NCBI GenBank assembly: GCA_051362555.1
Contig: CM120645.1
Location: 20,212,001-20,276,000, forward strand
Length of the DNA: 64,000 nt
Direction: 5' to 3'
Origin: Lingula anatina
Taxonomy: Eukaryota > Animalia > Brachiopoda
A program made the translations under genes and the position numbers. The notes below the pieces were generated by a model that saw only the letters and a program-made list of their open reading frames with translations, had not been told where the DNA came from and did not search any database. This document shows positions 271-63,712 of the stretch, piece after piece; the stretch's first letter is position 1, and every line of letters begins with the position of its first letter.

Positions 271-1476
271 ATGAAGACGCTGGGATTCCTCTTGTGTTGT
301 GTAGCTTTAACACGTGGTGATTTATACATCACTAATCCAAGGTAAGGCAGTAATTATATCAGGTGCATATTATTATTGGTCTTAGGTACAAGTTTCGACA
401 TTCTTGTGATTAGAACGAGTGCAATATTCCATTCAATTAGATAACTACTGATAACTCTAATCTAAAAACTTAGACATTTGCAACAAGTACAAATTGTGAT
501 TAAAGTTACTAACAGCAACAAGAATGAAAACGATTCTCTTTAAATATCTCTATCGTTTTATGTTTCCATATTCATATTTATGTAAGTATCGCTAAGACGC
601 ACGAGAAGTGCAATATTTTCAGAAATCAATCAGTTGTAATTACCATCATTATATTGTCGTGTGTTACACATGTAGAAACACATCTTTGCACCATTTCTTT
701 ATCACTCCGAGCGCTATAGAAAATATTATTTTGTCTGTTATTTCTATTTTGCTATTTTGTGTTTGACATTGCTTTAACAGATAGTACTGTTACTCCGTAT
801 CATCTGGTATGTCGTATCTGGTAAGTCACAAGAAATAATGTAACTTTATCAGTCCTCCGACCAGTCCTCCAATTCACGACGTTTTCGCAGGTGCAGGTGT
901 ACTTATAATTAATATTCAAACAGGCATAAAAATTGAGCATGATGTTAGTCTCCTTAGGTAACTTATAGATGAGTCTCGAGATAAGGATTTAGATTTGCGT
1001 GCGCATTAGAATCGTGACACGGAGTACAAAGCCCAGAAGAGCTTAAATCTTTCTGTAATAGAATCCATTTTAATAACTTTTGCTCCTTTATGTCGTTCTT
1101 TACACAGGCACCCAAGTGCGTCATTGGGTTGATAATGTGCTGTAGGGCGTTTGAATGCAGGCTGTTGGTTGATTTGAGGCATTATAACTCTTTGTGCCTT
1201 CTGTCATGTACTTTCTGATCCTTGAAATGTCTAGAGTGTCACTAAATGTTTTCCGACTTTCGCTCAATTTTGAATAATAGGTTTACGTGTGTATTGGATG
1301 TTGGGCGTGATGTTCAATTTAATGAGATATGTACATTGAGGGTTAAGCATTTATATACTGTAGCAAAAAAGTATAAAAATAAGAAAAAAGTTTTAAAATA
1401 TAAAAAAACCGAAGAGGCCGTTATTGTGAGTGACGCAAACACATATTTACATCCATATCCAAATTTACACACACAA

Positions 1477-1523
<47 letters not shown>

Positions 1524-3867
1524 GCATGTATAAATGTTTATTTATTCTTTCCAGGGGAAGTAATAATAGGCTCAATTGGTTTACCCGGGATGTGAGAAAT
1601 AACAAAAGGTAACAGTTATTTTTGCAAAAGAATTATTTTTTATAATAAAATGGTTATCATTATTCTGTCGAAACGAGAAAAATAATTAACCCTGTCACAT
1701 CCAGAATCATCTGTTTGCATAGAAATACACTGGAGGGGGCACATGTTTTTCGAGGAAAACGCATCTAATTAAAAATAGCCCACAAAAGTAATTTTACTGT
1801 GAAATATAGGACCAGAGATGGAAATGCGCTTGGTTTTGTCTCATTATGCTTGTTTAATTGCATTTTTCCCAGGGAGAAGGGGTAACCTCAAAGCCAAGGA
1901 GTGTGTGTGTGCGGGAGGGGGGGGGGGAAGGGGCGTTGAACATGGCCTGCTGTATCCGCCATTGTTAAAGTGTCAGAGAAGATATGCAGAATAAACAAAA
2001 TAGATTTTAATCTATTAAAATCTATTTTGTTTATTTTGCATATTTCACACTTAAAAGTGCTTGAGAGATCAAGCTTATGGTCTATGAAAGAATAAAGATG
2101 AAAATCATAATTTAATAAATAGTAAATAAACAGTTTTATTTTGTCTATAATCTTTTCAGGTTGTTCGATTCCCAAAATAACAACCGCGGTGGATACAATG
2201 TGGGAGACCCTATGTACTACTACGAGGGATCTACACTTAGCATAGAGTGGTACGTTGTTTTTTTTCTTAACCTCACTAACAGATGAAGGGACACGGACAT
2301 CCGCCGTTTTTTCTTTTACTAGCATATTTTCTTTGGATAATTACGGCATTTTTTCTTTCGTCCGTTGTTCACAGGCCTATGTTGTGTTTTATCCATTGTT
2401 CACGACGCTATTTTTCTATCCGTTTTCATGAAGTTACTTATTTCTATTGTCCGTTCATCGGGCCAGAAGCTTAATAAAGATAATATTTTATTGTTTTGAT
2501 ATATACCGATGATATATACCATAGAGATATTTTTCATTCCATCTGTTGATGAAAAGATCAAAGTTGAGAGCACTTCACTTAAATTCTAATAAACTTCTGA
2601 AGTATTTGGTGTTTTTATGATTAAAAGTCAATTTTACTTCAAACATCGATGACATTTATACTTAAGTTTAAACCAAAAGCACGTATGCAATTTTGATTTC
2701 AACTAAATTAATTGATCCTTATACAAGTCATTGGATGTAGCAAATAATGTGTTGTATTTAACAAAGTTTCATCATTCTTAGTAGTAGAAGCAGTTTGAGT
2801 ATCATTATTTTAATTATCAACAACGAAATTGTCTCACTTATTCTTCTTTCTATCATACTCAGGGCTAACCAGCACAGCTGCGCGGACCAGAACGCTAACT
2901 GCGAGCTTATATTGCAGTACATGTGTGATGACAAGATCAGAGACGGGGCAACGTCTTTTTCAATTGTTGACAACCAGGACCTAAATCCTGGTTTTGGAAT
3001 GCATGAGGAATGGAACCACTATTTGTACTGTCGCACTAGGCAAAGAAACAAAGGGCTTTTCTTAGCGGATCAGGTAGCATGTATAACGGAGGCTCATATT
3101 GCAGTTGTATTCTTTTTATTCTTCCGTAAATACAAGTCATGATCTCCATTAGTTTAACAGTGAAAACGTTGATGTCTATACCCTTTACTGTAATCCTGTA
3201 ATAATAAACAAATATAGTACTTAGGCTTCGTTCGTTATTGTTTTACCTTTCGTTGCGTTACAATCTAAGTATACTCATTAACTTGTTATACAGTTTTTCT
3301 AATAAGGGCTTTCGCTTACACGCTTTCGCTTACACACTTAAGTTATAAGACTTACTTCTAGATTTGGACATTATTATTACTTTTGCATTTTAAATTATTA
3401 GCCTTTAACTATTGTTATATAATAAAAAAGATAGAATAAATTACCTTGACTTAAGAAATATCTGTTAAATGTGAAGCGCTCTTTTGCATGAAACCACATG
3501 GTTTCGGACATCTTATAACAAAAAAAATAGTACCGGAAGAACAAAAATGACTGCGTTTTAACAATGTAAAAAATATATATATGTTTAACTGCAAAAATGT
3601 AAATAATGAAAACCAAAAGACAATAATAATTTAAAGAAACACAATCACAAAGTGTAAAACATAAGTAAAGTAAGCTATCTTCGTGCAGAACTTATTTCCC
3701 GCGTAGTAAAATAAACGCAAACAAAAAAATGCATACTTCCGTCGCAATCTTGTGAGAGCATCTATCGCAATCACTAACTAACATTACTGGCTGCAGTTAC
3801 ACACCCCCCCAAAATCTATCTAAGATTTTTAACAACATTAAGAGTGCATTAAATTAAATATAATACC

Positions 3868-3898
<31 letters not shown>

Positions 3899-6800
3899 TT
3901 CCAATGTAAAACTGGATTCAAAGATCAAGGAGTAAATGATAAACACAAAATAAACACTATTTGCTATCAATACATTAACCGCTGCATGTAAAGGTTATAT
4001 GTTCTACCTTAATTTCCTTTATAACTTGTTGCTTAAGGTAAATCCACATGTCACCTTAATATAGTACACTGACATACTTTCTTACACCCATAACTCACCG
4101 TTCACACCCTAGACCTATTGTGAAACTAGCTTTGTCTATTTTCCAAGTCACCGTGAAGACTGAGAACTAAAAATGAAATTACATTTTTTAAAGGACTCAT
4201 GATCTAAGTTACCAACTTAAACAGTGGGAATGAATCCAAAAAATCTATATCCTACCTTAAACAATAAAACTCACAACATCAACATTCAAACTTAACTACC
4301 AGTTTTAAACAGTTAGTCATTGAGCAACTCACTCACTTACAGTCCTAATTACATTCAGAGAGTACTAACAACTTTCAATCAAAAGCACTAACTTCTGAAT
4401 TGGTCTTTCTAAAATAACTGGCTTGGTTTCGCGTTTTCCCAGTGAATTTAAGTCATCAGTTCCTACACAAATCTTGGCCTTGCGCACTAATTTATCCTTG
4501 CTGGGAATACATTCAACCACTCTGCCTAGTGACCAACTGTTTCGCGCTACATTAGGTTCCACAACAAGAACAATATCTCCCACTGTGATATTTCTCTTAC
4601 ATCTTGTCCAGCACTGTCTCTTGTTAAGATTCTGAAGATACTCTTTCCTCCATCTGCTCCAGAACTGTTGTGTGAGAAACTGAACTCTTCTCCATCTTTT
4701 CCTGAGATACATGTCCTGAGAAACAAAATTTCCTGGGGGTGGTAGTGGCACACTGGATTTCATTGTAAGAATGTGATTAGGTGTCAGGGGCTCTGCACAC
4801 TCAGGATCATTGATATTGGCTATTGATAGAGGACGGCTGTTTACGATTGCCATTGCTTCATAAAACAGTGTGCGTAAAGATGAATCATCCAATCTACCTG
4901 GGCAGAGATTAATCACTCCTGCTAATACATTCCTTATAGTACGAATCTGTCGCTCCCATACTCCACCAACATGACTAGAATGAGGTGCATTCATAAGAAA
5001 ATCACAATCTTGATTGGCTAGGTAACAAGCTACCTTCTGAGCATCCATTTCCTTTAATGCAGCTGTGAATTCATTCTTTGCACCTACAAAATTGCTCCCT
5101 TGATCTGATCTGATCTGGCGAACTTTTCCTCTAATAGAAATGAAACATCTAAGAGCATTTATAAACGCATCTGATGACATGTCGTCCAGCATTTCAACAT
5201 GCACTGCTCTAGAACATAAACAGGTAAATAACAGACCATAGCGTTTGAACTCCTTCCTATTCTGTTTCACAATGAAAGGACCAAAGCAATCCATGGCACT
5301 ATATTCAAATGGACATGATGCTTCCACACGATCAGAAGGCAAATCTGCCATTTTCTGCTCTTCCACTGGTTTTCTCATTTTCCTGCATGTAACACATCTG
5401 TGAATAATTTCAGATGTCAGCTTCCCTCCAGCAAGGATCCAAAATCCATTGGCTCTGACTTCATTTAGAGTCATACCACGGCCCATATGACCAATGCGTT
5501 TATGAAAATGAGATACAATCAATTTTGAAACATAGCTATCCTTGGATAATATTACTGGATGCTGAACAGAAAAGGCAAAACTTGATTGTCCTAGCCTTCC
5601 TCCCACACGAATTACTCCTTTATTGTCTTTAAAGGGGTTCAATGTTGAACTAGGAGGTTTTCCCTCGAACTTCTGTTCTTGAGCTAATTTTATCAAGAAT
5701 GTGGTCGTTTCTTGCCTTTCCTCTTCTGAAGTGAGACTTGCATTTTTGATACCTCTTGCTCTTCTTTTGAGCCTTGCAATTGCTCTGACTGCTCTAGACC
5801 AATCTGAAAATTTCTCGAGTCTTTCTATCATGGATTTCTTTTCTACTGTCTGTGTACTCCTTACAGAAGACATTTTGATCTCTGGGTCCATTTCTGGTAA
5901 CTGTACATCATTGTGGGGCATGTCAGCCATCTCTAAATCAGGATTCCAAAGAAATCTTGGTCCTGTAAACCAGGTGGAGTCTCTCAACTTCTCCACTGAC
6001 AAACCTCTTGATGCGTGATCTGCAGGGTTGTCTTCACTTCTTACATAGTGCCATTGCTGTGGGGAAGTTGCTTCTTTGATCAACTCTACTCTGTTGGCTA
6101 CATATATTTTAAATCTGCGTGTGTCATTGTTTATGTAACCTAGCACAATCCTTGAATCTGTCCAAAAATAATGACGGTACTTCTCTGTCATCTCAGATTC
6201 AAGAACTTTGCTCATTTTGAGAGAGACTACTGCAGCATTGAGCTCCAATCTTGGTAGGGTGATAACCTTCAATGGAGTTACTCTGGCCTTTGACATGACA
6301 AGAGAACAATGTACTTCGTTTTTCTCGTTCACAAGTCGTATATAAGAACATTGTCCATATCCAGATAAACTCGCATCAGAGAAATGATGAAGTTCTCTTC
6401 GCGTTACTGTTCCAAAGTTCTTTGGTATAAAACACCGGGCCACCTTGATAGTTTGAATATCCTTCAATTCTTCAGACCATTTTTCCCACTGTGGCATAAG
6501 ATCATTGGAAAGTTCTTCATCCCATGCAGAATTCTCTTTACACATTTGTTGCAATATCTGCTTCCCAATAAGAATAAATGGGGATAGAAAGCCTTGAGGA
6601 TCATACACGGATGCCACTGTAGATAGCACTCCCCTGCGTGTTTTTGCCTTGACTTCACTGGTAAAAGCTCTGTACTGAAAAACATCATCTTCTACATTCC
6701 ACTGTAATCCCAATGCAGTGGAAACTGGCAATCTGTCTTTATTCAAATCCACACCATTCACCTCTGTAGCACGCTCAGACTCTGGGACCGTTTCTAATAC

Positions 6801-9800
6801 CTCCCTGCTATTGGACAAGAACTTGTGCAATCGTATGCCTCCACTGGCACACAATTTCCTTGCCTGATCGATAATCTGAATGGCGGTATCTGCGTCATCA
6901 GAGCTGGTCAAACCATCATCAACATAGAAGTGATGCTTAATAAATTCTGCTGCCAATGGGTATTCATTCTCATAACTTTTAGCAAGATATTTCAAACCAA
7001 AATTGGCACAACCAGGCGATGAAGTAGCCCCAAAAAGATGTACTTTCATCCTGAATACCGTTGGCTCCTTGGTAATGTCACCATTTTTCCACCACAGAAA
7101 TCGCAGGTAATTTCTGTCGTTATCTTGCACTAGGAATTGATGAAACATTTTTTCAATATCACATGCTACTGCCACTGGGTGTTCTCTAAATCTAATCAAA
7201 ACTCCTAGAAGGCTACTTGTTAAGTCGGGACCACTTAGTAAATGTTGATTAAGTAAGTTTGTTTGTAAGTTGCAGAGCAATCAAATACCACACGAAGTTT
7301 TCCTTTCTGTGGATGATAAACTCCATGATGTGGCAAGTACCATACTTCTCCTTTAATGGTATCATCTGGAGCTTCTTCAGCCTCACCTCGGTCTATAATA
7401 CCTTGCACCATGCTCGTGTACGATTCACGATAACTTGGATCTCGCTCAAACTTGCGTCTCAGATGATCAAGGCGTTGGAGTGCCTGGGACTTGTTATCAG
7501 GGAGAGCTGGTCGTCTTCTGAATGGCAATGGCATCTGAATGTGACCATTATTCAACTGCTGTATATTGGTTTCTTGTACTCTCAAAAACTGCAAATCTTC
7601 TTGAGACATCTCAACTTCGGTCTTGTCGTGAACAAAATCCTTTTCTAAGGCATTAATAACGTCTCTTGGCATACAAGGAAACACCTCCTTTGTCGTCACA
7701 CGGTGACAAACTGAAGCTAAGTTATCTCTTGAAGAGCAACCAACAATACTCCACCCAAGTATAGTCTGCACTGCATATGGCTCGCTATTTCCACCAACTA
7801 GGGTCTCTCTAGGTAGCAATGCTTGTGGACAATTAAAACCAATGAGTAAACCCACATCACAAGTCTGTAGGGGAGGAATCTTGTTCAAAAGAGGCTTTAG
7901 ATGTTGCCAGTCTGATACAGTTTTTCTCGTAGGAATTTGTGTTCTGTCAGCTGGTATAAACTCCCTAGTGAATGCTTGATCAATCTCCAATGTCTCAGTA
8001 GACTTGAATCCTCTTACTCGCAATCTTCTGATTTTCTTGCTGTCTATGAGGGACTTTTGACTTGACATTGTTGATAAACTAAGTGTGGCATGCTCTGTTT
8101 CAGCATTTAAAGCAGCAGCCGTATCTTCTAATAAAAATGTAGTGTCACTCTGTGTATCTAAAAGTGCATAGGTCAACACCTCATGTTCTGGATTTTCCTG
8201 TGTAGACACCCAAACAGGCACTATCATGGTAGTGCTACTCTGACGGTGATGCTGATTGACTTTGAGAGAATTTACGCTTTGGGTTTCTCTGCTGGTAGGT
8301 GGCTGCCGTTCTTCGTGCATGCAGGTTGGATGCTTGCCCTTACAGGTACCACATACATGTTTTCTTCTGCAGTCACTGTTTCTGTGTCCCTGTCCTAAAC
8401 ATCCAAAGCACAAATTCTTTTTCACCACAAACTCCCTTTTCTTGGATATCGTTAAAGCGCCAAAGTCATGACATCTAGAGATATAATGACCTTCTTTCTC
8501 ACAATATGTGCACAATTTTTTCTCTGCTACACCAGCATTAACATTTAGAGCTCTGACCGTATCATGCACCTTGTTCACCAATGGAGAGGTAATGGGATTG
8601 CAAGCCACTTCTGATTCTTCTGACAGGAAAGCACAAAAGTCACGAAAGGAGGGGTAGCCTTCAGTCTTCATAGACCTTGTCACTTGACGATTCCATCTGT
8701 GTGATACAAACTGTGGTAGCTTGTTAACCATTTTCCTGTTTTCACTATAATCGTTCAAAACTGTGAGTCCCTTGACGTGCGGCATGGCATCACATACAGC
8801 ATTCAGAAAGTCTGAGTAGTCTCTGAGTGCATTTCCATCTTTTTCTGGAATCTTTGGCCATTTATCTAGCTTTTCTCTGAAAGACTTCTGTATCAGGAAC
8901 TCATCTCCAAACCTTTCGTTCAGCTTTCTCCAGGCATCATCAAATGCTGCTTCATCTGTTCTTAAGAAAGCTCCCTGAATCATTTTAGCAGCAGGCCCTG
9001 CTGTATACTTCCTAAGAAAAAAGAGTTTCTCAGTAGCATTGAGGGCTTTCCTTCCAATTAAGACAGAGAAGGAGTTCTTCCATTCAGGAAACAGCAATGG
9101 ATTACCTGCAAATACCTTTGGTTCTGGAACAGGTAGGCGTCCTAAAGACAAACTCTGTTGAAGAGCTTCTGTTAAACCATCGAGGGAAACTGCTGGCGTG
9201 TGATCAGTTGTGGCCATAGGCGTAGAGACTGCATGCATGTGTGCAGTTGTAGCTATGGGCACGGAAACATCAGGTGCAGACAGGGAAACTGAGGGTACAC
9301 GCACAGCTGCAGTCACAGGTAGGGAAGCAGCTGGAGTATAGACAGATGCAGTCGCAGGCACGGACATCACATGTGCATGAACAGCCGTAGTCGCTGACAC
9401 GGGAACCTCTGATGTATAAACAGCTGTAGTCGCTGACAGGGGAACCTCTGGTGGTAAGACAGTTGTAGTCACAGGCACAGAAACCTCGGGTGTATAAGCA
9501 GCTGTAGTCGCAGGCACGGACAACATATGTGCATGAATAGCTGTAGATGCTGACACGGGAACCTCTGATGTTGAAGCAACTGCAGTCACAGACACGGGAA
9601 CCTCTGATGATGAGACAGTTGCAGTCACAGGCACGGAAACCTCGGGCGTATAAACAGCTGTAGTCACAGGCAGGGAAACTGAGGGCACGCGCACAGCTGC
9701 AGTCACAGGCACGGGAACCTCAGGTGTTGTGGCAGCTGCAGACACAGGCACGGAAACCTCAGGCGTGTAAACAGCTGTAGTCACAGGCAGGGAAGCTGAG

Positions 9801-12800
9801 GGCATGTGTATCTTGTCAAACTCATTTAAAGCATCAATTTTAGCCTGAGATACACGTAAACTAGTCTGCATTTCTAAATCCTCCTCTTTAAATTTCAATT
9901 CTAACCTTGCTCGCTCCAATTCCTGCTTGACTTTCATGGCTGATGCACGAATGCTCAACTCGGCTTGTTTCTGTGCTTCCTCCAATTTCAAAAGACTTGA
10001 CGTTGAGGAGCCACGAGAACTGGTTCTTGATCTGGTACTGACTGATTTAGAGTCTTCAGTGTGCTCAGTAACTGATGATAAATTCTGCTCCATAATTCTC
10101 TTGAATTCCAATAATATTTTTCTGCGAGGCTCATCAATAACTGCTGAGTCAGAATGGCTTTGTAATTTCAACAAATTATCTTCAATTTCAAAATATTGGT
10201 CACAATTCTGCAACCATTCTGCATATTCTTCTCTGAGTAATGTCTTGCTGCCACCTTCTTTAATTATGGCATTGCACCGTTCCATAATTTTTGACAGTTC
10301 TCCAAAGAGTCGCTTACATCTTTTACCTTGTATCTCAACAGAATATTCCTTTCCCTTTTCTGTCATCGTTACAGTTCTTTTCTTCGTTAGGGAATTGGTT
10401 GACTCGTTTTCACTATAACGGAGGCTCATATTGCAGTTGTATTCTTTTTATTCTTCCGTAAATACAAGTCATGATCTCCATTAGTTTAACAGTGAAAACG
10501 TTGATGTCTATACCCTTTACTGTAATCCTGTAATAATAAACAAATATAGTACTTAGGCTTCGTTCGTTATTGTTTTACCTTTCGTTGCGTTACAATCTAA
10601 GTATACTCATTAACTTGTTATACAGTTTTTCTAATAAGGGCTTTCGCTTACACGCTTTCGCTTACACACTTAAGTTATAAGACTTACTTCTAGATTTGGA
10701 CATTATTATTACTTTTGCATTTTAAATTATTAGCCTTTAACTATTGTTATATAATAAAAAAGATAGAATAAATTACCTTGACTTAAGAAATATCTGTTAA
10801 ATGTGAAGCGCTCTTTTGCATGAAACCACATGGTTTCGGACATCTTATAACAAAAAAAATAGTACCGGAAGAACAAAAATGACTGCGTTTTAACAATGTA
10901 AAAAATATATATATGTTTAACTGCAAAAATGTAAATAATGAAAACCAAAAGACAATAATAATTTAAAGAAACACAATCACAAAGTGTAAAACATAAGTAA
11001 AGTAAGCTATCTTCGTGCAGAACTTATTTCCCGCGTAGTAAAATAAACGCAAACAAAAAAATGCATACTTCCGTCGCAATCTTGTGAGAGCATCTATCGC
11101 AATCACTAACTAACATTACTGGCTGCAGTTACAGCATGCGCTTGTATTTATCCTGGATGCAGTAACGCGCGTTTTTTTTTCTTTTCATTAAAAATAATTT
11201 TGCCATCATGTGAGGCAAGAATATGTTCCTTCTCTCATTTTCTTGCATACCCCGTCTACCGATACATTATTCAATATCGCTTTCGCGTGCAAAACTTTCA
11301 CCCTTTGTATTTTTTTCTTGCATGTCGCACGAATGCAAAGCATCACGATTTTTTTTGACATAATTTAATGTGCTTCATAAAATTTCGCATAAGAATATTT
11401 TAACTATCAATAGATACGTACGTTAATGCTTTAATTGCTTCGTCAGCTTAAGTACCGAAAGTCTTGGTCCCAAAAAATGTATGTGTCGTCTGAAAAACGT
11501 TCACGAAATATTGACATGAACTCATGCGCATGCAATGTTGAAGTACATGCTGCAGTGGATATTCAAGGAATAATACAGCTCACACCAGACGTGGTTATGA
11601 ATTTTAAACATCCAAAGTAATGTAAGATTCTTTTTTTTTTACTAAAGAATCTTAGGTTCAACGATGCTAGATTCACTCGACAGAATAATGGCGGCACCAA
11701 AAGCGGTTACGAATGCCCAGAAGAGAGAGACTACTATCCCTATTGGTACCATTCCCCTTGGAAGGTACGTATACATCGAGGTTATTTGCATATTGGGCTA
11801 AACTAGTTGTACTCGTGTTTAATTCAATATGTCCTAGCTTTGTTGTTCAAATAGAACCAAATTCGAGACCTTAAATCGCCTATACTGGTGACTCAGGTCC
11901 TTTATAATGTGGTTACTCTCCACCAGGGGTCTCTTCAGTCGTCTCTACAGCCATGTCAATATTAGACTGCATTCCTCTAACCCTATCGTACCAGCACGAT
12001 CGATTTAACACAAAGCGGATTATCGCTAATTTGCATTCAGTTTAAGCGGCTTATTTATCTACCACGCCTACTGAAGCTGCTGGCTGTAATTAACTTTCGT
12101 GCACGCTTAAATTGAATGCGATTTAGCGAAAATCCCCTCGGAACTAGATCGATCCTGCTACTACGATAGGGAATGGTCCCTTAGATGAACAACGCTCTCC
12201 ACCTTGAACACCTTGAATCCCATACGGGTCTTTTGTCCAGTTGCGTTACGAGAGAGAACCCCTGGCAGAGTGTAGGCAGTGATGCCCTCATTGCGACAAC
12301 GGCTGGATTTCAGTACCAGTTATCTTAGCTTTGTCTCGATTTTCATATTATTCCTTTTCCTTTTTGTTGGGAAAACAAGGGGTATCTCATAAGCTAAGGA
12401 GGGGAGGAACACCTGGTCCACTGCCTCCCCCCCCCCCCCCCGGGGCCGTCAATGTTCTCTTGTTTTAATATAATTATGATATTTAACTCTCCTTAAGGAC
12501 ATCGTCGTCATGACTAATAACGTTGAACGCTGCGACTATTACCAAAAAGAGAGCAACAACGTGAAGTCCAGGTGGGGGTGTGTCGTCGACAGAAACAAGC
12601 TGAATCGATTTTATCGCTGGCCTCTTTTTATCATTCCTGACAATAAAGAGGATTGTGAGGTAAGTGCCATTCATATGCCAGGAGGCAAAATTGAGGGAAG
12701 CTCAAGAAAGCTACTTATGAAATACATTTGAAACAAAACAATTTACAAGCCTATTTTATATTAATTTTCTTTCATGTTTGATCTACACTGTACAGTCATT

Positions 12801-13519
12801 TGCAATTTATTATCTTTCCTTGTATTTTAGAATTTCGAAATATTCAGACAGCCAGTAAGTGCAAATTGGACTGAATTTCCCGCTCACGACATTCCGCCGC
12901 CAAAGTGTATCAAGGCCCCCTGGTCACGTGACAACCACAACGGCAACGGGATTGGAGGAAATTTCAATACATACGATTGGGTAATTCCGGAGGGTATTGC
13001 TCATGAGAAATGCGTCTTACGGATGAGGTAATTAGCTTGTCCAATAATTAAAAATTACATGAAATAATCTACTCTACAAATATTATATCCGGCAAATAAA
13101 AGAGATTTAGCATATAGTACATCTACAGGTAGTTTCTACAAAACATCGACTAAAATGGTGCATTCCAGTATTTTTGTAGTCTAATTCTTTTTTAAAAAAA
13201 GCAGCTTTAAGCTGCTGTTTTGCAATTGAAGAAACTATTATTGTAACTGTGGCTCTTGCCACGTCGATCAGTATTACTCAATGAATGTGAAAACAGAATC
13301 TTTTATAACCGCAATTGTCATTTGTGTAATAGGTAATCAAATTCGCCTTGACTGAGAATTTGGAATATGCAATTGGAAGTCTGTTGATATGTTTTAGAAT
13401 TTTAAGTGTTATATATTATATATTATTTATTTGTGCATAGCGTTGATGCGTTTTTTTTTTCAGGACAATTTAAAGGAATTCTTAATAATAATAATAATAA
13501 TAATAAATATTATTATTAA

Positions 13520-13550
<31 letters not shown>

Positions 13551-33248: not shown

Positions 33249-33285
<37 letters not shown>

Positions 33286-33340
33286 ATGTGTGCCCGCGCA
33301 CCCGTGTGTGTACTGAAATGGACGTAATCCATGACTAAGT
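33016..33340 (-). pseudogene. Relic exon 9 plus flanking intron of a lost paralog-D-type DD3-3 gene
   Basis: Aligns by eye to 46864-47218 (acattgtgtacttactgaa..atctccaaggtgttggggaca.agtcgtactccac..gggtctttctctaat..tgcgaatatcaa.aggca..tactgaaatggacg) with internal deletions. Confidence 0.85.
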
Positions 33341-40966: not shown

Positions 40967-41027
<61 letters not shown>

Positions 41028-42029
41028 GTTGTGTGAATATACACCAACTGTAATAATCCCGTTTAGAGGTACTGTAACAAGCACAGGATTAATTACGAAA
41101 GATTATAATTTACGAATTTTTCTGAGGTCCTCAAGTATATGTCACACCTAATGACTTATATCTTATCGAAATTCAAAACTTAAAAAATCGGTAGATATGC
41201 ACTTTAAAGTAATGTCTTCCTCAACTGTAGTAAGTAAGATTTATTTATTGATTGATTGATTTATAAGATTGATTGATTTATTTATCTATTTATTGCTATA
41301 TAAAGGTGTAATAAACATTGCATCCCTTTGTGTTGCGCCTCACGGACGAATCATGCAAACACGAAGGCCTGCGCTTCTTTTTAAAAATGACCACAAGTGA
41401 AAGTTGGGAGGCTTTGATATCTGCAGACATTTCAAGGTTCAGAAAACACAAGAAGGAAGGCACAAAGAGTTATAATACCTTAAAATCAACCAACTGTCCG
41501 CATCAAACGTCCTGAAATCCTTTACCAAATTAATGACGCACATGACTGCTTAAGTAAAGAACGACGTAAATAAGCAGAGGGCACTGGATATGGATTATGT
41601 AACAGAATGATTCGGGATCTATATGCCTATTGTCCTCACTGTCACGATTCTGATGTCAGTGTAGGCCTATATGAAAATCTGTAAGTTATCTTTATTAATT
41701 TATTTAATTTTTTTCTATTGACTAAGTTCCAAGCATCGATTATTATTTGTTTTTCATTTTCTATATATGCTCCATAAAAAGGAAATTATGGAGAAAAACA
41801 CTTAGGGACAGACCTATAGTGTATGCAAGCTGGTGATAATATTTGCACCGCCTGTCGTACTTATTAAAAAACTTACTTAAAGAAACTGTTAACAAACTAT
41901 TAAGATCCTCGATTCCTTTTAATATCTCTGTAGGGGAACGTTAATACCACTCTTTGGGTTAAATTCCCTGTATGAAACCAACCTCAGCAATGAGAGATGT
42001 AGAATAGGATTGATCAGAGAGTCAGATGT

Positions 42030-42075
<46 letters not shown>

Positions 42076-42370
42076 GGTGCTGAGATACGCCCATCTCTGA
42101 CATAATTCTAAAATCGTGGCGCTTACATGAATATCAGGAACAAAAACGAAGATTTCAGATTAAAAACTAAAAACGCCCTTAAAGTTTGGGGCTCCACAAG
42201 CGATGGTTAAAGATATAGGCAGTGGATAACATGTTCATATATACGATCAATTATTAGGAAAAAGCACCAAAAAGAAACACCAAATTGAAAATGTCTTACC
42301 TTGGATTGGTGATATACAAATCACCATGTGTCAAAACCACACAGCACAGAATGAAGCCCAGCCTCTTCAT
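34059..42370 (-). CDS. DD3-3: DD3-3-like protein, paralog C (11 exons, 578 aa, signal peptide)
   Basis: Exons 42300-42370, 40889-40942, 40390-40479, 38006-38216, 37345-37461, 36874-37032, 36550-36746, 35993-36235, 35182-35352, 34662-34912, 34059-34231. Exon lengths identical to paralog B; starts [24 protein letters not shown]. Confidence 0.92.
38531..39963. mobile_element. Non-autonomous CACTG-terminus (CMC/EnSpm-like) DNA transposon in intron 3 of paralog C
   Basis: Perfect 22-bp TIRs cactgtaaaaacagtgtttagc / gctaaacactgtttttacagtg; 2-bp TSD TG; repeated gctaaac subterminal motifs. The empty site is visible in paralog B at ~29468-29495 (gttactgagtgccttcgaccttgacc). Confidence 0.88.
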
Positions 42371-42635
42371 TTTTCTTGCTGATCGTTCAAAGTGAAATTT
42401 AAAGGTTGCGAAATTAATCCCAATGATCCATTTAAATAGTTCCTATCACTCCAGCATTCCGTCTTCGCACGAAAATCTAGTCCATCAGGCTTTTTGCATA
42501 GTCAGATAATCTTTATTCATTTTATTACAATAAACCGGATTACTGACGGTTCTTTTCGCAAGAAAAACGAGTGCTGGGGTACGCCTTTGATTAAAGGACG
42601 TCCACTCAAGAAGACGGCTTTCTTTGGTCTAGACT
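42371..42635 (-). promoter_or_regulatory. Conserved proximal promoter/5' UTR of paralog C
   Basis: Homologous to the upstream regions of A and B; TATTTAAA near 42431-42438. Confidence 0.6.
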
Positions 42636-53287: not shown

Positions 53288-54216
53288 CTTTCTTCTGAGT
53301 CTGTTAGAATCACGCTTGCAAAGACACAAGTTGAAATTTTAATATTTGTCAGTCGTTCTAGTCACTGCCTATTCGCGTGAGCTCAACAAAATAGTTCCCC
53401 GCACTGCCCAAGAGAGCGTCCCGTCATGCTTTGGTTTGACGCAGGTAGGCTAATTATAATTATCACCCATCTTTATCTGATGAATTGCCTTTTGGGGTCC
53501 CCGCCAAGCCCTTTTGTAACGGTCTGCGTGAAATCAGATAGATGATCACGATGGTAAGACAGATGTATATCTGTCACGTAATAGTTGTCACTCATCCACA
53601 AACCGTTACGACAGGGAAAAATGACTTATTATGAATTATTATTATCTTATCGGGCGAAAAAAAGCCACAAAAAACACTAATTTTTCAAACTAAATTTGTG
53701 TCCAAGGGAGTAATCGGATAGGGGAGTGTTCGCGCCACCACCTTTATTTGCATTGATTTTACGTCAAGCGCAGTAATATGGGGTATCTCCATTTATGGAT
53801 GAACATTTGCCTTTCAAAAACTGAGTAAGAATATGAACGATGTGCCAAAGTGCTTGGGATTTATAAAGAAAAGAAGTATTCCCACGAACACTGAAACCAG
53901 CCAGTGGCTAGACGAAAAACTTAAGTGTACCTGTTTTTAAGGTAGGTTTTCTACGACTATGTTATTCAGTGGACCAGGGGCGATATCAGCCGTTTTATCG
54001 ACATAGAGGACTGTTTTTCTGATGTGTCTGATTGGGGTCTTGTGTTTTCAGTTCACTGAGGTGCAGGCGCTTCTCCGAAAACTGTCTCTCGATTATGTCA
54101 TCTCTCTGTTGCGTGAAAGATGCCCTCATCATACATAGTGTTTTTGTTTTCACGTAGCTTTCAGCGTGGACAATTAATCATGTTATCTCACAATATCTTT
54201 TCGCTTTTTAGCCAAG
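53288..54216. promoter_or_regulatory. Short divergent intergenic region between paralogs D and E (candidate bidirectional promoter)
   Basis: The ATGs are ~930 bp apart on opposite strands. An acceptor-like cttttt-ag at ~54204-54211, just before the E start codon, implies a 5' UTR exon still closer to D. Confidence 0.5.
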
Positions 54217-55224
54217 ATGCTGCTGAAGGTGGCGTGTTGCGCCCTAGCGCTAGCATGTGTCAGCGCCGACATCTACTTACACAACCCTCGAGGATCAAAT
54301 AACCGGTTGAACGAAAAATCCGCCAACCGTAAAAATGCTAACAGGGGGTTCGATTCACAGGTACGCTATATATTTCAACGATTTGACGTTTAGTTTTTTT
54401 ATGCTTGTAGCCATTAGCAACCCTTACAAAGCGACTCTAGATCTTAACTGTCTAATTATGTTGTTATTGATTGCAATATGATTATTAGTTTTAATGAAAA
54501 TGATTAATTGGCTAATTGCTAAGTGCATTTTTAAGTGGTCAAAATAAAGACTTAAAGTCTATTTTAAGACATCCACTCATAAAAAATCGTGTCCATTAAC
54601 ATTGATAAAGGTGCGGATCTCAGTTGACAGTTACCGAGAGCCAAACCTCAGTAAATGTGACTAACTTTAGTAAACCTAAGGATTGGCCTTAGATTTTTAG
54701 AAGACCTCCGGTCATTGCACCCGTGGCTCCTTTTTCTTCCGGGCAGAAACTAGTACTGTAAGAAGATAATTACCTAGTTAATTTCATGTTTTGTGAATAA
54801 ATTATTTCCATTCCGTTGCAAATTCACGGTGTATTGGCCTGGCGAACATTCGAATAAACGGGTGGCTTGGAAAATGGCGGCCGCACACATGAACGCTACA
54901 GAACGCGGAAATGAACAGTGGCAATGACCCAGAGATGCGTACATGTTTATCTTTGTTTTTCCAAATAAATTATCTCCTCTTCGTTTTGACTCAGTGACGG
55001 ACAGATATAATCTGAACAAAGTTCGGAAAGGTGGCTCTTCACACTTTGTGCATTCGTCACTCAGCGCGCCGTGCAATCTCTCCCATCTTATCGAGCTACC
55101 GAGCCTAGGACGGGTTTGTGGTCTGCTCACTGTCATTTTTCACTCCAGAAATCAGTTTATGGGACGTCAAAATCAAACTCTTGGAGCCCGCTGCATTCTT
55201 TTATTGGTTTCCGTATTTTATCAT

Positions 55225-55260
<36 letters not shown>

Positions 55261-56058
55261 CGTGTACATTTGCATATGTGCGTGTGTGTCTGTTACTTTT
55301 TCTTCACATTATCTTTCTCGTACAAAGACAGAACAGATACTGCTCAGATTTAAAAAAAATATTTGTGCACGGAAATGAACTTACTCAAGTGATTTAATAG
55401 TTTATCATTTAAATTTTTATATCTTTGGACTGGCCAGGACACTCATAATTTGTTCACAATGCTATTTACCCACTGAAAATAAAATTCGATCGTTTAAAGC
55501 CCAAGGAATAAATTATTATTATCATTATATAAACGTGAATATTTACCGAAGGGAAGTTTCACTCCCGAATTCCCTACTTGCAAATCTACCACAAGTTCGC
55601 GATTGACAACTAACCAATGACTGCAATTAACTTTTCAGTACATCTCTATTATGGTGTAAATAGCCACCATACCACCTTCTCCTTGCGCAATGCTTTCTTG
55701 TTAAAGCGATGAGCACCTGCGTCATTACGACATCGGGTTGTTTATATCTTGTTCTGATAACAGTTTACTTCTGCAAAATTCGTGCGTGAATTGGCAATTT
55801 CCCAAAGGTTGCATAGGAGGTTGCAACTTGTGACCGTTGTATAACAGTTTATATCATTGTATTACCTTTGTCAGTGCAAGTAGAATCAGTATCGATCGGT
55901 ATTCGTTATATTAGATCAAAGCAATAGGTGTGTTTGCTGTAGCACGTGCATCGCCTGACAGCGAAATGTTTACCTCATCTCTGGGGGCATTTTATTGTGA
56001 TTAATTGTTCGAACACGTGTACTAGTAGTTACAGCCACCTTTTCTTTAAAAACACAAA

Positions 56059-56089
<31 letters not shown>

Positions 56090-59000
56090 AATGAGAAAAT
56101 GTGATTAGAAAAACGAAATATATTAAAGAGTGAATACGGCATTGCCCAAAATGACCCCTCCCCCCCCCCCCCCGGCCCACACTGGATTATTATTAAAGCA
56201 AAAAGAGTTGTTGGCACACTGCGTCAAACCTTGACATCCCACATAATCGGCGAGCATTGCTTAAATCACATTTCTAAATAAGATTTCGATTTTGCAAGCA
56301 CACCTATAATTTGTGTTTACTGAAGCGGCAGATTTCGTGACCGAAGGAAAATGGACCTTCTTACAGATATTTGGGGTTGGCATGATCGGTGAAAGATTAC
56401 CCCTTTTTTTCATCCAAGGACAATCTATTGGTTCGAATAAATGGTGCGGTTCAAGGGTGTCTCCCGAGTTATTTTCATTATGTGTTAGGTTACTCTAGGC
56501 CAGTACCTTTGTAGAGAAACCACATAAGCCGCATTATGAATAGTAGTTCATTCATCACTGCTGGTTAACACCAAGCGCCCCCTCTTTTTTGAGGATTTGT
56601 ATTAAGCAATGCACATTATTGATAGCAACATCACGACTTCATTTCAAGTCAATACAAAGGTCTAGTCACGAAAGTTTGAGTTTCACCAAGTTTTCAAGGT
56701 TAAGAAGACGATGATTTAATGCTTTACTAGTCGCATAGAAATGAAAAAGCTTTTATTTTCATAGGTTGTTGGGATTGCACGCAATTAGATCTTTTGGTTG
56801 AGAAAGGGTGCAGATTTAACGAATTATGAAATCACGAACCACCACGAAATAGTAAAGACCTGGAAAAACCACAGAGATTTTTCAAATTGTAACCAAGGGG
56901 GTGCTCCGAATGAGTTGGTTTTAACACTGCCTATTTTACAATATCATGGTGCATTTTCTTATGTGTCCTGAAAAATGAAAAAGCACTGGGCACTTGATTT
57001 TAGTTATTAGATAGCCTCTGCCCCAGGCACCCTTTTGAACAAACAACAACAGGACACGACAAAAATATAACACCTCGGGTTTTGGTAAATAAAAAGGAGT
57101 TTACTATCCTGGGGAGGTGTTTAATGAAAGCGAGGGGCGATAAACCCCAAGGTCTAGACAAATATTCACGACACGAACCAATTTTATAGTACAATAGTCT
57201 GAAAGATAATCCGAATCCAGAGAGTATTAAAGGAGACCAAATCACAACGACGGGGCATGACATTTACTTTTATTAGATTTGATATGACACGAAATGTTGT
57301 CACTGAAGGCCAAATGACAAAGGGAATAATACAATGCGCAAAATGGAATCGGGAATAGAATATTATTATACGGGTCACGTATTTTTTATAAGCTTGTAGG
57401 GCTCTACGGTCTAGAAACCATCATTATTATTGATCGGTGGATCAATTGGTGGTTCAATTTGTAGACCTTTTTGCTTCTAAAACGAAATTTACTATCTTTC
57501 GTCAGTTACAAAGGTAAATTTAATTGAAATTTAATGTGTAATATGATAAATCCCCTTTTGTGAAATGAGACATTGACAATATATATTTAGACCAAAATAG
57601 TAGCGTCACAATCCTAATCTTACTCCAAATAATGACACCAATATACCCGATGACGGGGTACTTGAGAGGTGATATCAAATTGACGCAATTATCATCCCAC
57701 CATTGTATTAAAACATTATTTCCCGACCAGTTACTTTGCATCTTGGCACGTACAACAAGGGGATTTGCCCCTATTGTACACACGAAAAGAATGCCCATTA
57801 TCCAAAGGTGGTGACCTTATGACGTAGGTAAATCTAAGTGACAGTGAGGGCATGACTTTAAATGTTTGCACTCTATTATATTTACCCCTTGGGCCTTTTA
57901 AACGTGTTCACCCTGCCGAATAAACATTGGAAATAAATGGAAAAAATTGGTGCGTAGGTATGTAAGAAGAGCTGGACAAGGTGTGGAGGGCGTGCGTTAA
58001 TAAAGGCTCTGTCAAATTCAATCGTAACAGCGACAGATAAGGCCCTTAAAGAAGTTGGCAACATTATACGATATCAAGCTCTCTATTTCCGTATGACTCC
58101 CATAGTTTGTTACTTGGTGCTAGGCACGATCATTTAAAATCAATGGAATAAATGGAAGCATCTGAGATAGCATTAAATGAGCCATTTGGCACTGCAAGAC
58201 TAAAGAATACGTGCTAGAATCTTTCCAATTATTTTTTTATAACAAATGCACGTTTGATAAGATTCTTTCACTACAATATTGCTTTGCTCTGTGAAGAATA
58301 TCCATCATCTGTTTGTTTCCATATTCAGATAGATTTCCATACATTTCTTAATTTTTCCACACCTTAACTTAAACAACCAGCAACAAATAATCTTTAAACG
58401 ATGTCCCTGTTATTTAACAACTCAAAACCCCAAACATTTAAATATTTTCACACACTGACACAAAGAAAGAAAAGAATAGACTTTTAAAATAACGTCTCTG
58501 CAAATATTTCAAAATAATGCAATATACACTTTTCAATTATTTCAGAACAATAACAGAGGAGGTTATAACGTTGGGGACAAGACAAGCCAAGCGTTCGCCA
58601 CCGAGGATGATCAATATCAAATGGTAGGCCTACGTATTTTATGTGGAAACCTGCAGAGATACACATTCCACTTACAAAACCAATTCTTCAAATCTTTAAT
58701 CATCCCCTGAATTTCAGAAAATTGTACTGGAGCTTTAATAGGAAAATGAATCAATAAATAAAGTAGTTTTACTAACTCAATCGACCATGTTTTACAGAAA
58801 TATTTCCAAAGTGGAGACGACCCAGAGGCGTCACCTAGCAACCTGGTCGTGGAATGGACCAATCAGCACGGTTGTGGCGGAAGCGAGGACGATGACCCTC
58901 ACAAGGTCAACTGTAACCTCGTGCTACAGTACATGTGTCAGCCAGCTGACGTAGAACAAGGTAAATAAAATGAACTTGTTTTTTTTTTTCTTTTGTTTTT

Positions 59001-60973
59001 GTGATGTAATGCCGCAGGTAATGATTCTTTGGTCCCTTTTTGTGATCGTAGTTTTATCTTTCGGTAAACATATGCCTAGCCAGTATTTGGATACTTCATT
59101 ACTAGATCAGATGATAATAATAATAATTTTATTATGCTAATTATTATAATAGTATAGAATTTTTAGGTGCAATTCATAAAATTCTCAATGAACCTTGCAT
59201 AATATCTAGATTTATTAAAACTAACTGCCAATAAAACAATTCAAAATCACTTTCAATATACAGAACGCAATAAACTTTAATTAAGCAACAATATTATACG
59301 AAACTACTCATGCTACATAAGTAAACAGTTTACAAAATATATTGATAACGTAAGGCGTTTTCAATGCTCACCCTTAATCACTGCAGGCGAACTTCACAGG
59401 ATCAGGGACGGGCTTACCACGAACACGCAAGGTTACACCCGCCCAACATCACTTACCGAGGACCGCGCCACTTTCGAAGCTCGCAGAGCAGGGCAAGTGA
59501 AAGAAGATCGATTTCTTCAAGAGCCATTTGAGTGGTACGACAAGTGTTTTGTTCGGGAGAGAAATAAAGGTATTTTGAAATCAGAGAAGACGCAGTGTAT
59601 AATGTTGACACTGGCCCTAAATGCGAGAAAAAACTGAAATCCTGTCAGTACATTCTGTAGTTGCTACTTCTGCTCTGAACCGTAGGGTTTATGGACCAAG
59701 CTGTTCCAATGGGCCAGAAGGCTATTTTGTGCATAAAAGCTGGGTACCTATTGTGGTCTCATAATCTATTCAATAATTCATTTAAAGGTATTTTTTGTCT
59801 GTTATAATAAAGTTTGGGATATATTATAGTTCATATATAGTTACCTCACATGCCTGGTTTGTAATTATAGAGACGAAACTGAGACAGCGGTTTCAGTCAT
59901 TGAAGCACATTTTGTATGCATATTCCCTTTCACTGTCAGTGACTTTTCAAAACAAAATTTGAGTTTTGAAATATATTTTCCTATTTTCATTATTAGCATG
60001 GAAATAAAAAAACAACGGTTACATTAACATATACATATATCTCATCGTTTTGTCTAGGTCTTTTCACCGCTGATCAGAACCTGCGCAGAAACAACGGTCT
60101 GCGTGTCAGCAGCGCCATCTACACAAGACAGAACAGAAATGGCCAAAGAAGAGGCTACGAGTGCCCCGAGGAGAGAGATTACTACCCATACTGGCATCCG
60201 ACTCCATGGAAGGATATCGTTGTCTTGGCAGAAAACGCTAGCCTGTGCGATACGTGAGTGTCACATATACTATTCACAATACCTTTCTAGTTTAACGTGA
60301 CGATTAGATGATTAAAGTTATTTGAATAGTGTTAAGTGAATAAAGTCAGACGAAAATGAAATTTTACACATGACTCTGATAAGTTTTGATTTCATTCTCA
60401 TTCAACTGGTCTGTCTTAATCCCACTATTGTAATGTATAGATAGAAATGTTTTATGATAGTAGCTTTTAACTAATTTGAAAGGTGGAGTATGCCTCTTAA
60501 AATTGTACAAGTTAAATTGAAAGCCCCGCCAAAAAAACTTTCGGTCCAAGGACTTTTAAAGCCCACTGTAAAAAGATACGCACGATGTCATTACTTAACT
60601 GTAGGTGCATTTCATTTCTTACCTATCAAAACTCAAAAAACAAATCTTGGGTACAGCTTAGCCCAAAGATAAATAGATACATGTACCAAAAATTCATAAA
60701 TATTGATAAAACATTATTTGATTATTTCTATTTCCAGACATTACAGAAGCAAGAGTTTCAACACCCATAAATACGGAGAGTGTGTTGAGGGCGGCCGCCA
60801 TTTTTCCAAATATAACAACCCCGATGCTTGTACGGAGGCTGGGCACCAGTGGGTAGAATTCTCCAACTATCTAGAAATCTCCACTGGTGAGTGGACATTA
60901 AAAATGATAATTTTCATTTGCCTCTCCAAAATTTTATTCACCTTTGGGTCTAGACTATTTTAAGCTTATCCAT

Positions 60974-61025
<52 letters not shown>

Positions 61026-61696
61026 TTAAAATGATAACTATTATTTGCCTCTCCAAAATTTCATTCACCTTTGGGTCTAGACTATTTTAAGCTAACCAAT
61101 ATTTATTTGCATATTTAGGATTTTTAATGTCTTTGAATATGGATATTTCAGAGGATAACCGGGCAGACTGTGAAGAGGCGGGTCGCGTGTGGGCAGTACC
61201 ATACGATGCAGTCACTGGGACTACGGAACAGAAATGTCTCGTCCCTCTACCGGAAGTGGACTGCATGGAGGCGCCATGGTCAAGGTGGGTATGAGTACAG
61301 CGGCGTCATTAATGTGTGCTACGCAGAAAACGCGATAGGGATGTTGACGTTACTATTCACACGGGCAGTGCTGTACGAGTTGCGCCAGTCTTTTTTTTCT
61401 TCATTTTCCTTTTCTTGTAATTTGTTGATTATTTTGTATTCTATACAGTTACTAATTCAAACAAGGTTGGATGATGATATTTTTTTACTCGATAACGTTA
61501 GGTCCACTGTACAGAGAATCAACAAAATTTAAAAGGAAAAGATTAAATCCGTAGGAGTAACTTCGACAACTGTTTCACATTATCGCGATGCGATTATCAT
61601 ATTCGAAATCATTATGAACAGTACTTCGACATGTAAATCAATCATATACGTAGACTGAAAATAAATGCGCATATCTACTGAATTATATTTATTCCC

Positions 61697-61727
<31 letters not shown>

Positions 61728-63712
61728 GAATGATGCTAAATACATCTCCGGTGCATAAAAAAAGAAGCAATGAAAGTTATGTATTTGGCTCAATTGTAAC
61801 ACTGTTTGCCAGCATTTATTTCCAATGACTTTTTTCTTTATCTTTCTCTGTCATAAGTGGAAATTCTTATTTTTGCTCTGGATTGTATCATTTGTACTCA
61901 GCCATGTTTATTTTAATATACTATTACACCAATGCTTTTAACATATTTTAGAGTTAATCATAATGGCAACGGCAAAGACGGCGTGCCTCTCAACTATACT
62001 TGGGTTTTGCCTTACTTTCCTTCCGGGCAAGATCAAAAATGTGTTTTCAGAATAAGGTGGGTATTGGAACCATGATACATTTATCATTACTTAATTAACC
62101 AGTTTACTATTTTAATTATTAATTAGGTATTTCATTAAATTCTTTGATTTTGACAGTTAGAAGTTGTCAGAAATAATAATAATAGGAAGTTTCGTGTTGA
62201 GCAATGCCAGAACTTTGCGATGGTAAAAGGGCAAAATCAACAGTTTCTGTGGGTTGGTTTAGGTACAACATCACCACTGACGATTACGACCCCTACAACA
62301 CCGACTCGACAGAGAACGGCGCCGCAAATTCTCCGGTCACCAACAACCCCAATGTGGACATCGGCGCCGACCTTTCGCCTCTCCGCCTGAATATAAACAC
62401 CGCCCAGTTCGGCAGGGTGTTCCAGGACCGTTCACACGCCTTCATCCTCAGATCTCGCCCAGCAGAAATACAAGGGACGCTGCACAACCTCAACGTCCGC
62501 GGAAAGAGGGGAAACATCGTGCAAACGTACCCGGCTGTGGAGTACGATTTTATTCCCACCGAACTTCACATGACTGAAAACGACTTGGTGCACGTTCAGT
62601 GGACAGGTATTAAAAAAGAATTATTGAAACTATTAGTAACAGTAATAGTCAAATACAAAATGATGATTCGGATGATTAATTTTTCCTATATTTTGATATT
62701 CTAATATGAAACTTTTTTTCGACAATGTAGGTTGTAACATTGCATAAATTTTGACGATGTACTTTGCTTGCCTTCTTGTGGTAAGAAAGCGTATTATATG
62801 CATTGACACTATTTGGGATTCACATCCCTTTATCTATTATTTTTGTTGGTTATTAAAAAAAAACCAAATTATCGTTTGTAAATTCTTAAATATCTATCTT
62901 TATTCAACAGTTGAATCATTTATTCATCATTCTTGTTTGCTTTTTTTCATACTGCTTTTCATTCTAAACAAATTTTCCAGGCTCTAACACACACAACAAT
63001 GGCGCCCCTGGCGGCGACGGCCAGACGGGTGATGCGGGACAGGGCAAAGCCGGTAAGTACTTGCCTTCTACCAGGGTCATACACCCCATTCTCATAGATT
63101 AGATCGACCTACATTGGATCGACCTAACTCCCTGGGGGTTCACGCTAAATAGCTGTCAGCCGGGCGGACACGAAAGTTAATTACCCCTTAAAGCTTGTAG
63201 TAGGCGGGGACGGACACTTAAGGGGGATTATCTGACAGTAATCTAGTGAGACTCCCCGCGGTGATAGATCGATCTAAAAGTTGTGAGAACAGAGTCATAG
63301 AGAGATATATCGTTGTCACTAGATATTCACAAACATTTTAGATATTCACAAACAATTATAGCTAATTCTGGGCACGTTATATATATATATATATAGCTTT
63401 GTAAGTTACATTTAATTTATATTAAAACCTTTTTTCTCCACATAAACATTCCCTGACTTAAACTTTAAGATTATAAAATTTACTTCACGCAAAAGTTGTT
63501 TTAACTTTTCTAATTTTTGTCATATTACTATCATACTTAGGCACAGACAGACATAACTTTGTCGAACTTTTGGACCGGAACCACAACTTTCCCAAGCCGT
63601 TCGAGCAGTCGACCTTCTGGCAGAATGCAGAAGTAAAATGGATATACTATGGCAGCACGGCATCAACAGCTAAAGGTCTTGCCTTGAATATGGCTACTTC
63701 TGGATATTATGA
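54217..63712 (+). CDS. DD3-3: DD3-3-like protein, divergent paralog E (partial; continues beyond window end)
   Basis: Exons 54217-54360, 58546-58623, 58798-58960, 59387-59569, 60058-60253, 60738-60886, 61152-61284, 61952-62056, 62263-62606, 62981-63052, 63541-63712; phases join in frame. [116 protein letters not shown]. No stop is reached inside the window. Confidence 0.9.
60900..61095. repeat. Local ~65-bp direct duplication separated by (TTTA)n in a paralog E intron
   Basis: aaaatgataa..atttgcctctccaaaattt.attcacctttgggtctagactattttaagct occurs twice. Confidence 0.85.
63081..63295 (+). mobile_element. ~200-bp MITE family, copy 3 (paralog E intron), more diverged
   Basis: Same core ctaactccctgg..gttcac.ctaaat..ctgacagtaatctagtgagactcccc and gatcgatctaaa termini. 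Confidence 0.78.

Follow-up and report, generated by a model that had tools for sequence, protein, structure and literature searches.

Five DD3-3 genes at one Lingula anatina locus, four of them apparently anchorless M-type paralogs, and a candidate metal site in a predicted LPMO-like domain

What might a cluster of apparently secreted DD3-3 proteins do, and how did it arise? The window analyzed here, a 64-kb stretch of Lingula anatina DNA (64,000 nucleotides of contig CM120645.1), contains five related DD3-3 genes, A to E, found by self-comparison and translated search. All five products resemble proteins named DD3-3 over their full length, and each of A-C has an annotated L. anatina model at 97-99% identity. 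The DD3-3 cluster is thus real, and it has already been annotated. DD3-3 is conserved from amoebae to ascidians and absent from vertebrates (PMC6916515), and recurs in data on immunity, allorecognition and metamorphosis without a biochemical function. Animal DD3-3 comes in two old types, an anchorless S-type of ~660 residues and an M-type of ~770 residues with a ZU5-like domain and a membrane helix. The cluster is composed as follows.

271..15452, plus strand: gene A, anchorless M-type DD3-3, 579 residues; 11 exons (271-341, 1555-1608, 2160-2249, 2863-3073, 11648-11764, 12498-12659, 12831-13027, 13558-13800, 14122-14292, 14791-15041, 15280-15452); 567/579 identical to XP_013393237
24768..32120, minus strand: gene B, anchorless M-type DD3-3, 578 residues; 11 exons (32120-32050, 30445-30392, 30035-29946, 29153-28943, 28041-27925, 27588-27430, 27261-27065, 26712-26470, 26259-26089, 25590-25340, 24940-24768); 572/578 identical to XP_013392100
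33030..33193, minus strand: orphan exon left over from a lost sixth copy and decayed by deletions and a stop; it aligns best with D exon 9 (score 228, versus 174 for C and 177 for B)
34059..42370, minus strand: gene C, anchorless M-type DD3-3, 578 residues; 11 exons (42370-42300, 40942-40889, 40479-40390, 38216-38006, 37461-37345, 37032-36874, 36746-36550, 36235-35993, 35352-35182, 34912-34662, 34231-34059); 575/578 identical to XP_013392086
45809..53287, minus strand: gene D, anchorless M-type DD3-3, older paralog, 581 residues; 11 exons (53287-53217, 51995-51942, 50728-50642, 49943-49709, 49423-49307, 48979-48821, 48102-47909, 47712-47470, 47049-46879, 46511-46270, 45981-45809)
53288..54216, no strand: D-E intergenic region; genes D and E lie head to head, their start codons 929 bp apart
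54217..63716 and beyond, plus strand: gene E, S-type DD3-3, cut at the window end; exons 54217-54360, 58546-58623, 58798-58960, 59387-59569, 60058-60253, 60738-60886, 61152-61284, 61952-62056, 62263-62606, 62981-63052, 63541-63716 (last border least sure); 402/575 identical to the L. anatina protein P0003

Genes A-D have AG/GT borders at matching positions, zero internal stops and a defined 12-residue C-terminal end (letters not shown). Gene E has 11 open exons (581 codons) in the window, with ~60 residues missing at the window end; its intron positions differ from those of A-D, and it is a member of the other subfamily. A first-pass annotation of this DNA had counted five intact paralogs. The count stands for A-D, and E is a real gene whose intactness is seen for its windowed part. 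The local duplication, inversion and loss described at the same time are evident from the gene order (A on the plus strand, B-D on the minus strand, E on the plus strand) and from the decayed D-like exon between B and C. The sole 19-residue hydrophobic peak of A-D is at the N-terminus (Kyte-Doolittle 1.32-1.55; at most 1.03 after residue 25), in agreement with the earlier claim that they lack a hydrophobic anchor; as also proposed there, this N-terminal stretch makes secretion likely. The D-E intergenic region is a possible shared promoter.

Expression was analyzed by mapping four RNA runs of the same species label on positions 24300-43000 (genes B and C), with 6-25% of each run read. All 10 introns of gene B were spliced in run X6, and reads covered the stop and at least 54 bases past it. 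Gene C was present at low depth, with at least two introns spliced (runs X4/X6). Thus, for B and C the objection that the copies might be unexpressed fails. In run X1, 1145 reads sat on B exon 9 and then continued with letters matching D exon 10; these reads on a paralogous exon are indirect evidence that gene D is spliced and abundant in X1. Another 206 X1 reads continued from B exon 9 into letters hand-translated as the C-terminus of P0003, which is a further paralog outside the window. Usage of the copies seems to vary by sample, with B seen in X6, C in X4 and D in X1. Some X6 reads joined B exons with C exons, which fits an allelic difference or gene conversion.

The relatives of gene E (~650-680 residues) end directly after the final motif, so lack of an anchor is normal for the S-type. 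The best relatives of A-D are ~770 residues long; of 119 listed, 88 have a membrane-helix tail, 16 are short, 13 have a long helix-free tail and 2 lack the motif. The M-type tail is ZU5-like, with a TM-score of 0.77-0.78 to UNC5B/ZU5 models. A profile of the 88 tails, searched in six frames, did not find this tail (ZU5-like domain plus helix) in the window (best E 2.5; controls 5/5 at E < 1e-9), disposing of the concern that the transcripts might include downstream transmembrane-encoding exons there. In a 109-sequence tree, A-D fell inside the M-type half and E-like proteins in the other half. Judged by sequence, A-D are M-type DD3-3 proteins that lost the ZU5-like domain and the membrane helix. 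L. anatina still has one anchored gene, P0130, which lies next to neither A-D nor E but on a different scaffold that also carries an E-type gene.

Tail loss recurs in limpets, Hydra and anemones, and in trees the short forms of limpets and Hydra group beside anchored genes of their own lineage. Topologies were compared on a quick LG+G4 tree of 20 of the 109 rows by the approximately unbiased (AU) test. A single clade for all anchorless M-type forms was rejected (p-AU 1.6e-5; 7 rows; 4 changes). As sister of A-D, Lingula's own transmembrane gene gave a p-AU of 0.44 and the limpet short forms 0.15. Anchored forms keep the residues at alignment positions 261-263, 271, 279 and 450, whereas most short forms have changed them; the ZU5-like tail or a partner may make contact there. 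Position 450, for example, is Asp in 79/88 anchored and Ala in 12/15 short forms. The sequences are not independent, and these changes were not used as evidence of function.

Both types were found on one scaffold, as inferred from equal scaffold sizes, in 18/20 species with both types listed, and six such scaffolds are under 3 Mb. In Patella and Potamilus, the two types have adjacent locus tags. These data suggest that S-type and M-type form an ancient linked gene pair, which D and E would mirror.

To what fold does the extracellular module belong? An AlphaFold model of the C-type protein (150 sequences) had a predicted local distance difference test score (pLDDT) of 86.8 and a predicted template modeling score (pTM) of 0.89; residues 17-391 folded alone reached a pLDDT of 92.3. 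When residues 17-391 were compared with known structures by VIA-align, proteins of the lytic polysaccharide monooxygenase (LPMO) fold filled 12 of the 13 best rows and 15 of the 20 best. The best match was AA15 (Z 6.7, root mean square deviation (rmsd) 4.2, 147 residues aligned; under the safe bar of Z 8), and the other LPMO-fold rows were AA10, AA13, X325 (Z 5.8), AA16, AA11 and fusolin. These rows aligned 115-147 residues, versus about 90 for the listed plain fibronectin type III (FnIII) modules, of which Ihog FnIII was row 48 (Z 4.3). The top Foldseek row was also an LPMO, but at E 0.44. The assignment is a consistent lead, not proof. It is compatible with the earlier description of the ascidian homolog HrSMLP1 as FnIII-like (PMC6916515). 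ESM Atlas returned only unnamed or DD3-3 clusters. Residues 397-574 are predicted to resemble cupredoxins (Z 6.9, rmsd 3.1, 93 of 95 residues aligned; Foldseek E 1.3e-3, probability 0.97). Note that coral DD3-3 has been labeled with 'SOD domains' (PMC12960093), a label that no search here reproduced.

The first residue after the signal peptide is Asp in 272/277 sequences in which the motif was found (of 395 in the set), and Asp also occupies the His1 position in A-E. Edman sequencing of HrSMLP1 begins with Asp, placing the cleavage before this residue (PMC6916515). His76, Arg376, Phe378 and Asp380 have a conservation of 1.00 in 150 sequences. The order of His76 and Phe378 along the strands fits the LPMO pattern of a second His and an axial aromatic residue. 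Asp1 and His76 may form a metal site, a candidate derived from sequence order rather than from coordinates. By definition, the DD3-3 proteins are neither LPMOs, Asp standing in place of His1 in A-E and 272/277 sequences, nor blue copper proteins, the type-1 His/Cys/His/Met ligand set not being kept. They may still function in a comparable way.

We next consider the domain partners of DD3-3. A profile search recovered 4209 representatives at E ≤ 0.001, and 29 of 147 new representatives, chosen for length, were scanned with Pfam. Ten of these carried a ferric-reductase/NADPH oxidase (NOX) core and 13 had no domain match; other long representatives carry SUEL, C-type lectin, WSC, FN3, SH3 or methyltransferase-like domains. 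Searching all collected proteins with a profile built from the fused parts recovered the same ten, which amount to 10/17 new representatives of 1000 residues or more. They are 31-54% identical, with a helix right behind the DD3-3 core, and those named belong to the amoebozoan Ceratiomyxa, the diplonemid Artemidia and dinoflagellates. The four heme His and the NOX-type extra His of TM3 were present in 10/10, and Thr-Gly in 9/10 (one Ser-Gly); this signature, as opposed to the metal-reductase type, was taken from PMC3591440. FAD and NADPH domains are present, but the P0323 sequence stops short of the NADPH domain and the match of P0387 is weak and partial. Other extracellular partners of the ferric-reductase/NOX core (DOMON, peroxidase-like) are electron-transfer domains (PMC3591440). 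Separately, four DD3-3 relatives of 1329-1458 residues (P0263, P0264, P0266 and P0270) have large Cys-rich core inserts and no Pfam match.

We tentatively favor, at somewhat less than even odds, the view that DD3-3 is an extracellular metal-site protein tied to surface reactive oxygen chemistry on glycans. A-D, as paralogs without the ZU5-like domain and helix, would be secreted versions of the extracellular DD3-3 module. In the predicted LPMO-like domain, Asp1 with its free N-terminus and His76 would together hold a metal, and the module would bind or oxidize surface glycans, using reactive oxygen from cell-surface NADPH oxidases. With the anchor lost, the activity would no longer sit at the cell membrane but act in mucus, body fluid or matrix. 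Secretion, metal binding, the glycan target and the animal NOX partnership are steps that we infer. A broader version is doubtful: DD3-3 proteins would be unrecognized pan-eukaryotic 'aspartate-brace' metalloenzymes, LPMO-derived, with a metal at Asp1 and His76, spending NOX-made superoxide/H2O2 on glycans, fused to the oxidase in protists (as a DUOX analogue), present as a linked anchored/soluble pair in invertebrates and repeatedly released from the membrane, with Lingula A-D as one instance.

Several observations weigh against the metal-site interpretation. No Foldseek match at E ≤ 0.001 was obtained for the DD3-3 model domains, there was no PDB sequence match at E ≤ 10, and no Pfam family covers the DD3-3 core. 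All fold scores are under Z 8, a range in which, according to the tool, two proteins may share no more than a common arrangement. The fungal effector NIS1 reaches Z 6.2, and alignments to plain FnIII modules likewise start at residue 1. His1, the defining LPMO copper ligand of the histidine brace, is absent, and the invariant Arg376 could simply pair with Asp1, filling the candidate site. By motif analogy, the cupredoxin-like domain lacks the type-1 set: the Cys position is Cys in 229 and Ser in 100 of 346 sequences, and Asn and Gln stand at the His and Met positions in 329 of 346. The window contains no NOX gene, and the Lingula DD3-3 proteins are unfused. Fusions of relatives to SUEL, C-type and WSC lectin-type domains fit binding without chemistry equally well.

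The last point leads to the second-ranked explanation, a real possibility to which we assign about one chance in three: DD3-3 may be a metal-free module for glycan binding or recognition, a pseudo-enzyme on an LPMO-like or FnIII-like scaffold, with A-D being soluble versions of a surface receptor that serve in pattern recognition, as opsonins or as decoys. The missing His1 and type-1 ligands and the lectin-domain fusions speak for it, as do data on homologs. HrSMLP1 is found on hemocyte membranes and is tied to allorecognition, and its ~74-kDa form is membrane-bound though no transmembrane segment is mentioned in the accessible text (PMC6916515); a sponge homolog rises after microbial patterns (PMC6208332). 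In addition, copy A has 45 private changes (12 and 18 for B and C), 7 of which produced aromatic residues (aromatic excess p 0.03, uncorrected). However, a recognition module leaves Asp as residue 1 and the conserved NOX fusions unexplained, the antibody of the ascidian study binds sugar chains rather than protein (PMC6916515), and sequence diversification is small. By analogy with the homologs in the literature, an immune or surface role is possible; dd3-3 also marks the anterior epidermis of sea-star larvae (10.64898/2026.09.20.752982).

An unlikely third explanation is metal capture: like X325/Bim1, DD3-3 would gather Cu or Fe outside the cell for a reductase or transporter. X325, one of the fold matches, has an Asp ligand and has been linked to Cu transport (PMC10952591), and the fused core belongs to the ferric-reductase superfamily. 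X325 keeps His1, however, and the fused cores bear the signature of NOX, which makes reactive oxygen, not that of a metal reductase.

The first-pass annotation had instead likened the recent duplication, inversion and loss to the pattern of immune, adhesive/mucus or toxin effectors, which would make this a fast-evolving or arms-race family. Protein identity is 88-94% among A-C and 70-73% between D and A-C. Pairwise synonymous divergence (dS) is 0.27-0.34 among A, B and C and above 2 (saturated) toward D. Recent duplication therefore holds for A, B and C but not for D, which is old, or for E, which belongs to a separate old subfamily. The decayed D-like exon between B and C, together with the similarity of the regions upstream of B and C, suggests that a D-C unit was duplicated in tandem and that one of the two D copies, the second, was lost. 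In pairwise Nei-Gojobori comparisons, without site models, the ratio of nonsynonymous to synonymous divergence (dN/dS) is 0.09-0.20 in all six A-D pairs, indicating purifying selection. On branch A, domain 1 has 33 replacement versus 30 silent codon changes, compared with 19 versus 40 for B and C together (Fisher p 0.03 from a single test, uncorrected). This pattern hints at an altered first domain with a changed binding surface rather than an arms race. Local birth and death, seen in the orphan exon and the inversion, would also suit effectors. Nevertheless, the low dN/dS, a core 44-59% identical across animals and protists, the wide spread of the family and its ancient clustering make an effector family quite improbable, and no toxin or adhesive motif, repeat or low-complexity region was found.

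That the copies are assembly or haplotype duplicates, an idea prompted by near-identical twins of the A and B models on a second RefSeq scaffold, is refuted for the five window genes by these dS values, by introns that differ widely between copies and by the separate 97-99% RefSeq matches of A, B and C, all three on one scaffold. The twins do mean that the L. anatina copy number in databases, our source for copies outside the window, is probably inflated by haplotypes. No database protein at least 90% identical to D or E was returned. One RefSeq A-type model has only 394 residues, starting at exon 6; it may reflect a disruption similar to the retrotransposon insertion described below, or an assembly gap.

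The window contains the following further elements.

3082..11133, minus strand: BEL/Pao long terminal repeat (LTR) retrotransposon of ~8 kb in intron 4 of gene A (PF05380, PF00078, PF00665, PF18701, PF03564)
16481-17289: tandem repeat with a 134-bp unit (about 5 copies, 85% matches), located downstream of gene A
17804-18642, minus strand: acidic/lysine-rich open stretches, probably the exons of a small gene that lies between A and the sulfotransferase; the portion compared with Pfam gave no match
21328-21524, 50099-50308 and 63087-63289: dispersed ~200-bp repeat, three copies, 82-86% alike
21982-22932, plus strand: Sulfotransferase_2 open frame between A and B (PF03567, E 1.9e-40)
38531-39963: element of 1.43 kb within gene C (intron 3), bounded by perfect 22-bp terminal inverted repeats that begin with CACTG; covered by X6 reads

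The BEL/Pao element is very young, with two 100% identical 720-bp LTRs and a 5-bp target duplication. It inserted 8 bases into intron 4, keeping the splice donor, and its coding region lies in two frames (10447-7238 and 7280-4368). The element in gene C is presumably a non-autonomous CACTA-type transposon. The sulfotransferase frame has a possible upstream exon; it is a glycan-modifying neighbor with no evidence of a link to DD3-3.

Three things are new: the origin of A-D through loss of the anchor, the old linked gene pair, and a hypothesis for the family that is based on structure and specifies residues. The linked pair and the repeated anchor loss count as findings independently of that hypothesis. 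By assigning a fold, naming residues (Asp1, His76, Arg376, Phe378) and linking the family to NOX, the hypothesis opens the way to direct assays, for which the Lingula forms, presumably soluble by nature, are convenient constructs. We found no literature, subscription journals being outside our coverage, that ascribes an LPMO or cupredoxin fold to DD3-3 or connects the family with NOX. The accessible portions of PMC8495957, PMC6805232 and 10.1101/2022.02.28.482349 give no fold or NOX fusion for DD3-3, and 'DD3' was not found in those of PMC13425148 and PMC9524095 or in one supplement of the Lingula genome paper (PMC4595640). An N-terminal Asp has been raised within the histidine-brace concept but not exemplified in the accessible text (PMC12537917); if a metal is bound at the site, that concept would be widened to include it.

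How does the system compare with known ones? The Lingula proteins share with HrSMLP1 a putative signal peptide and a probable Asp N-terminus, but HrSMLP1 is a single gene in the ascidian and the Lingula window has five. Dictyostelium DD3-3 is treated as single-pass (PMC10022678), whereas A-D have no helix. Like LPMOs (AA10, AA15, AA13), X325/Bim1 and fusolin, DD3-3 is probably secreted, with a predicted beta-sandwich from the first mature residue, an invariant His after the third strand and an invariant Phe near the domain end. It differs from LPMOs in having Asp instead of His1, a domain twice as long (375 residues), many disulfides, an attached cupredoxin-like domain and only 8-12% identity. 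Residues 397-574 are predicted to share the fold of plastocyanin, auracyanin and nitrosocyanin, but without the type-1 set and with a large insert. Finally, the layout of the protist relatives, consisting of signal peptide, ectodomain, extra helix and NOX core, is that of DUOX. In contrast to DUOX and the DOMON-ferric reductases, the ectodomain is DD3-3, Pfam detects no EF-hand, and the genes of the Lingula window are free-standing.

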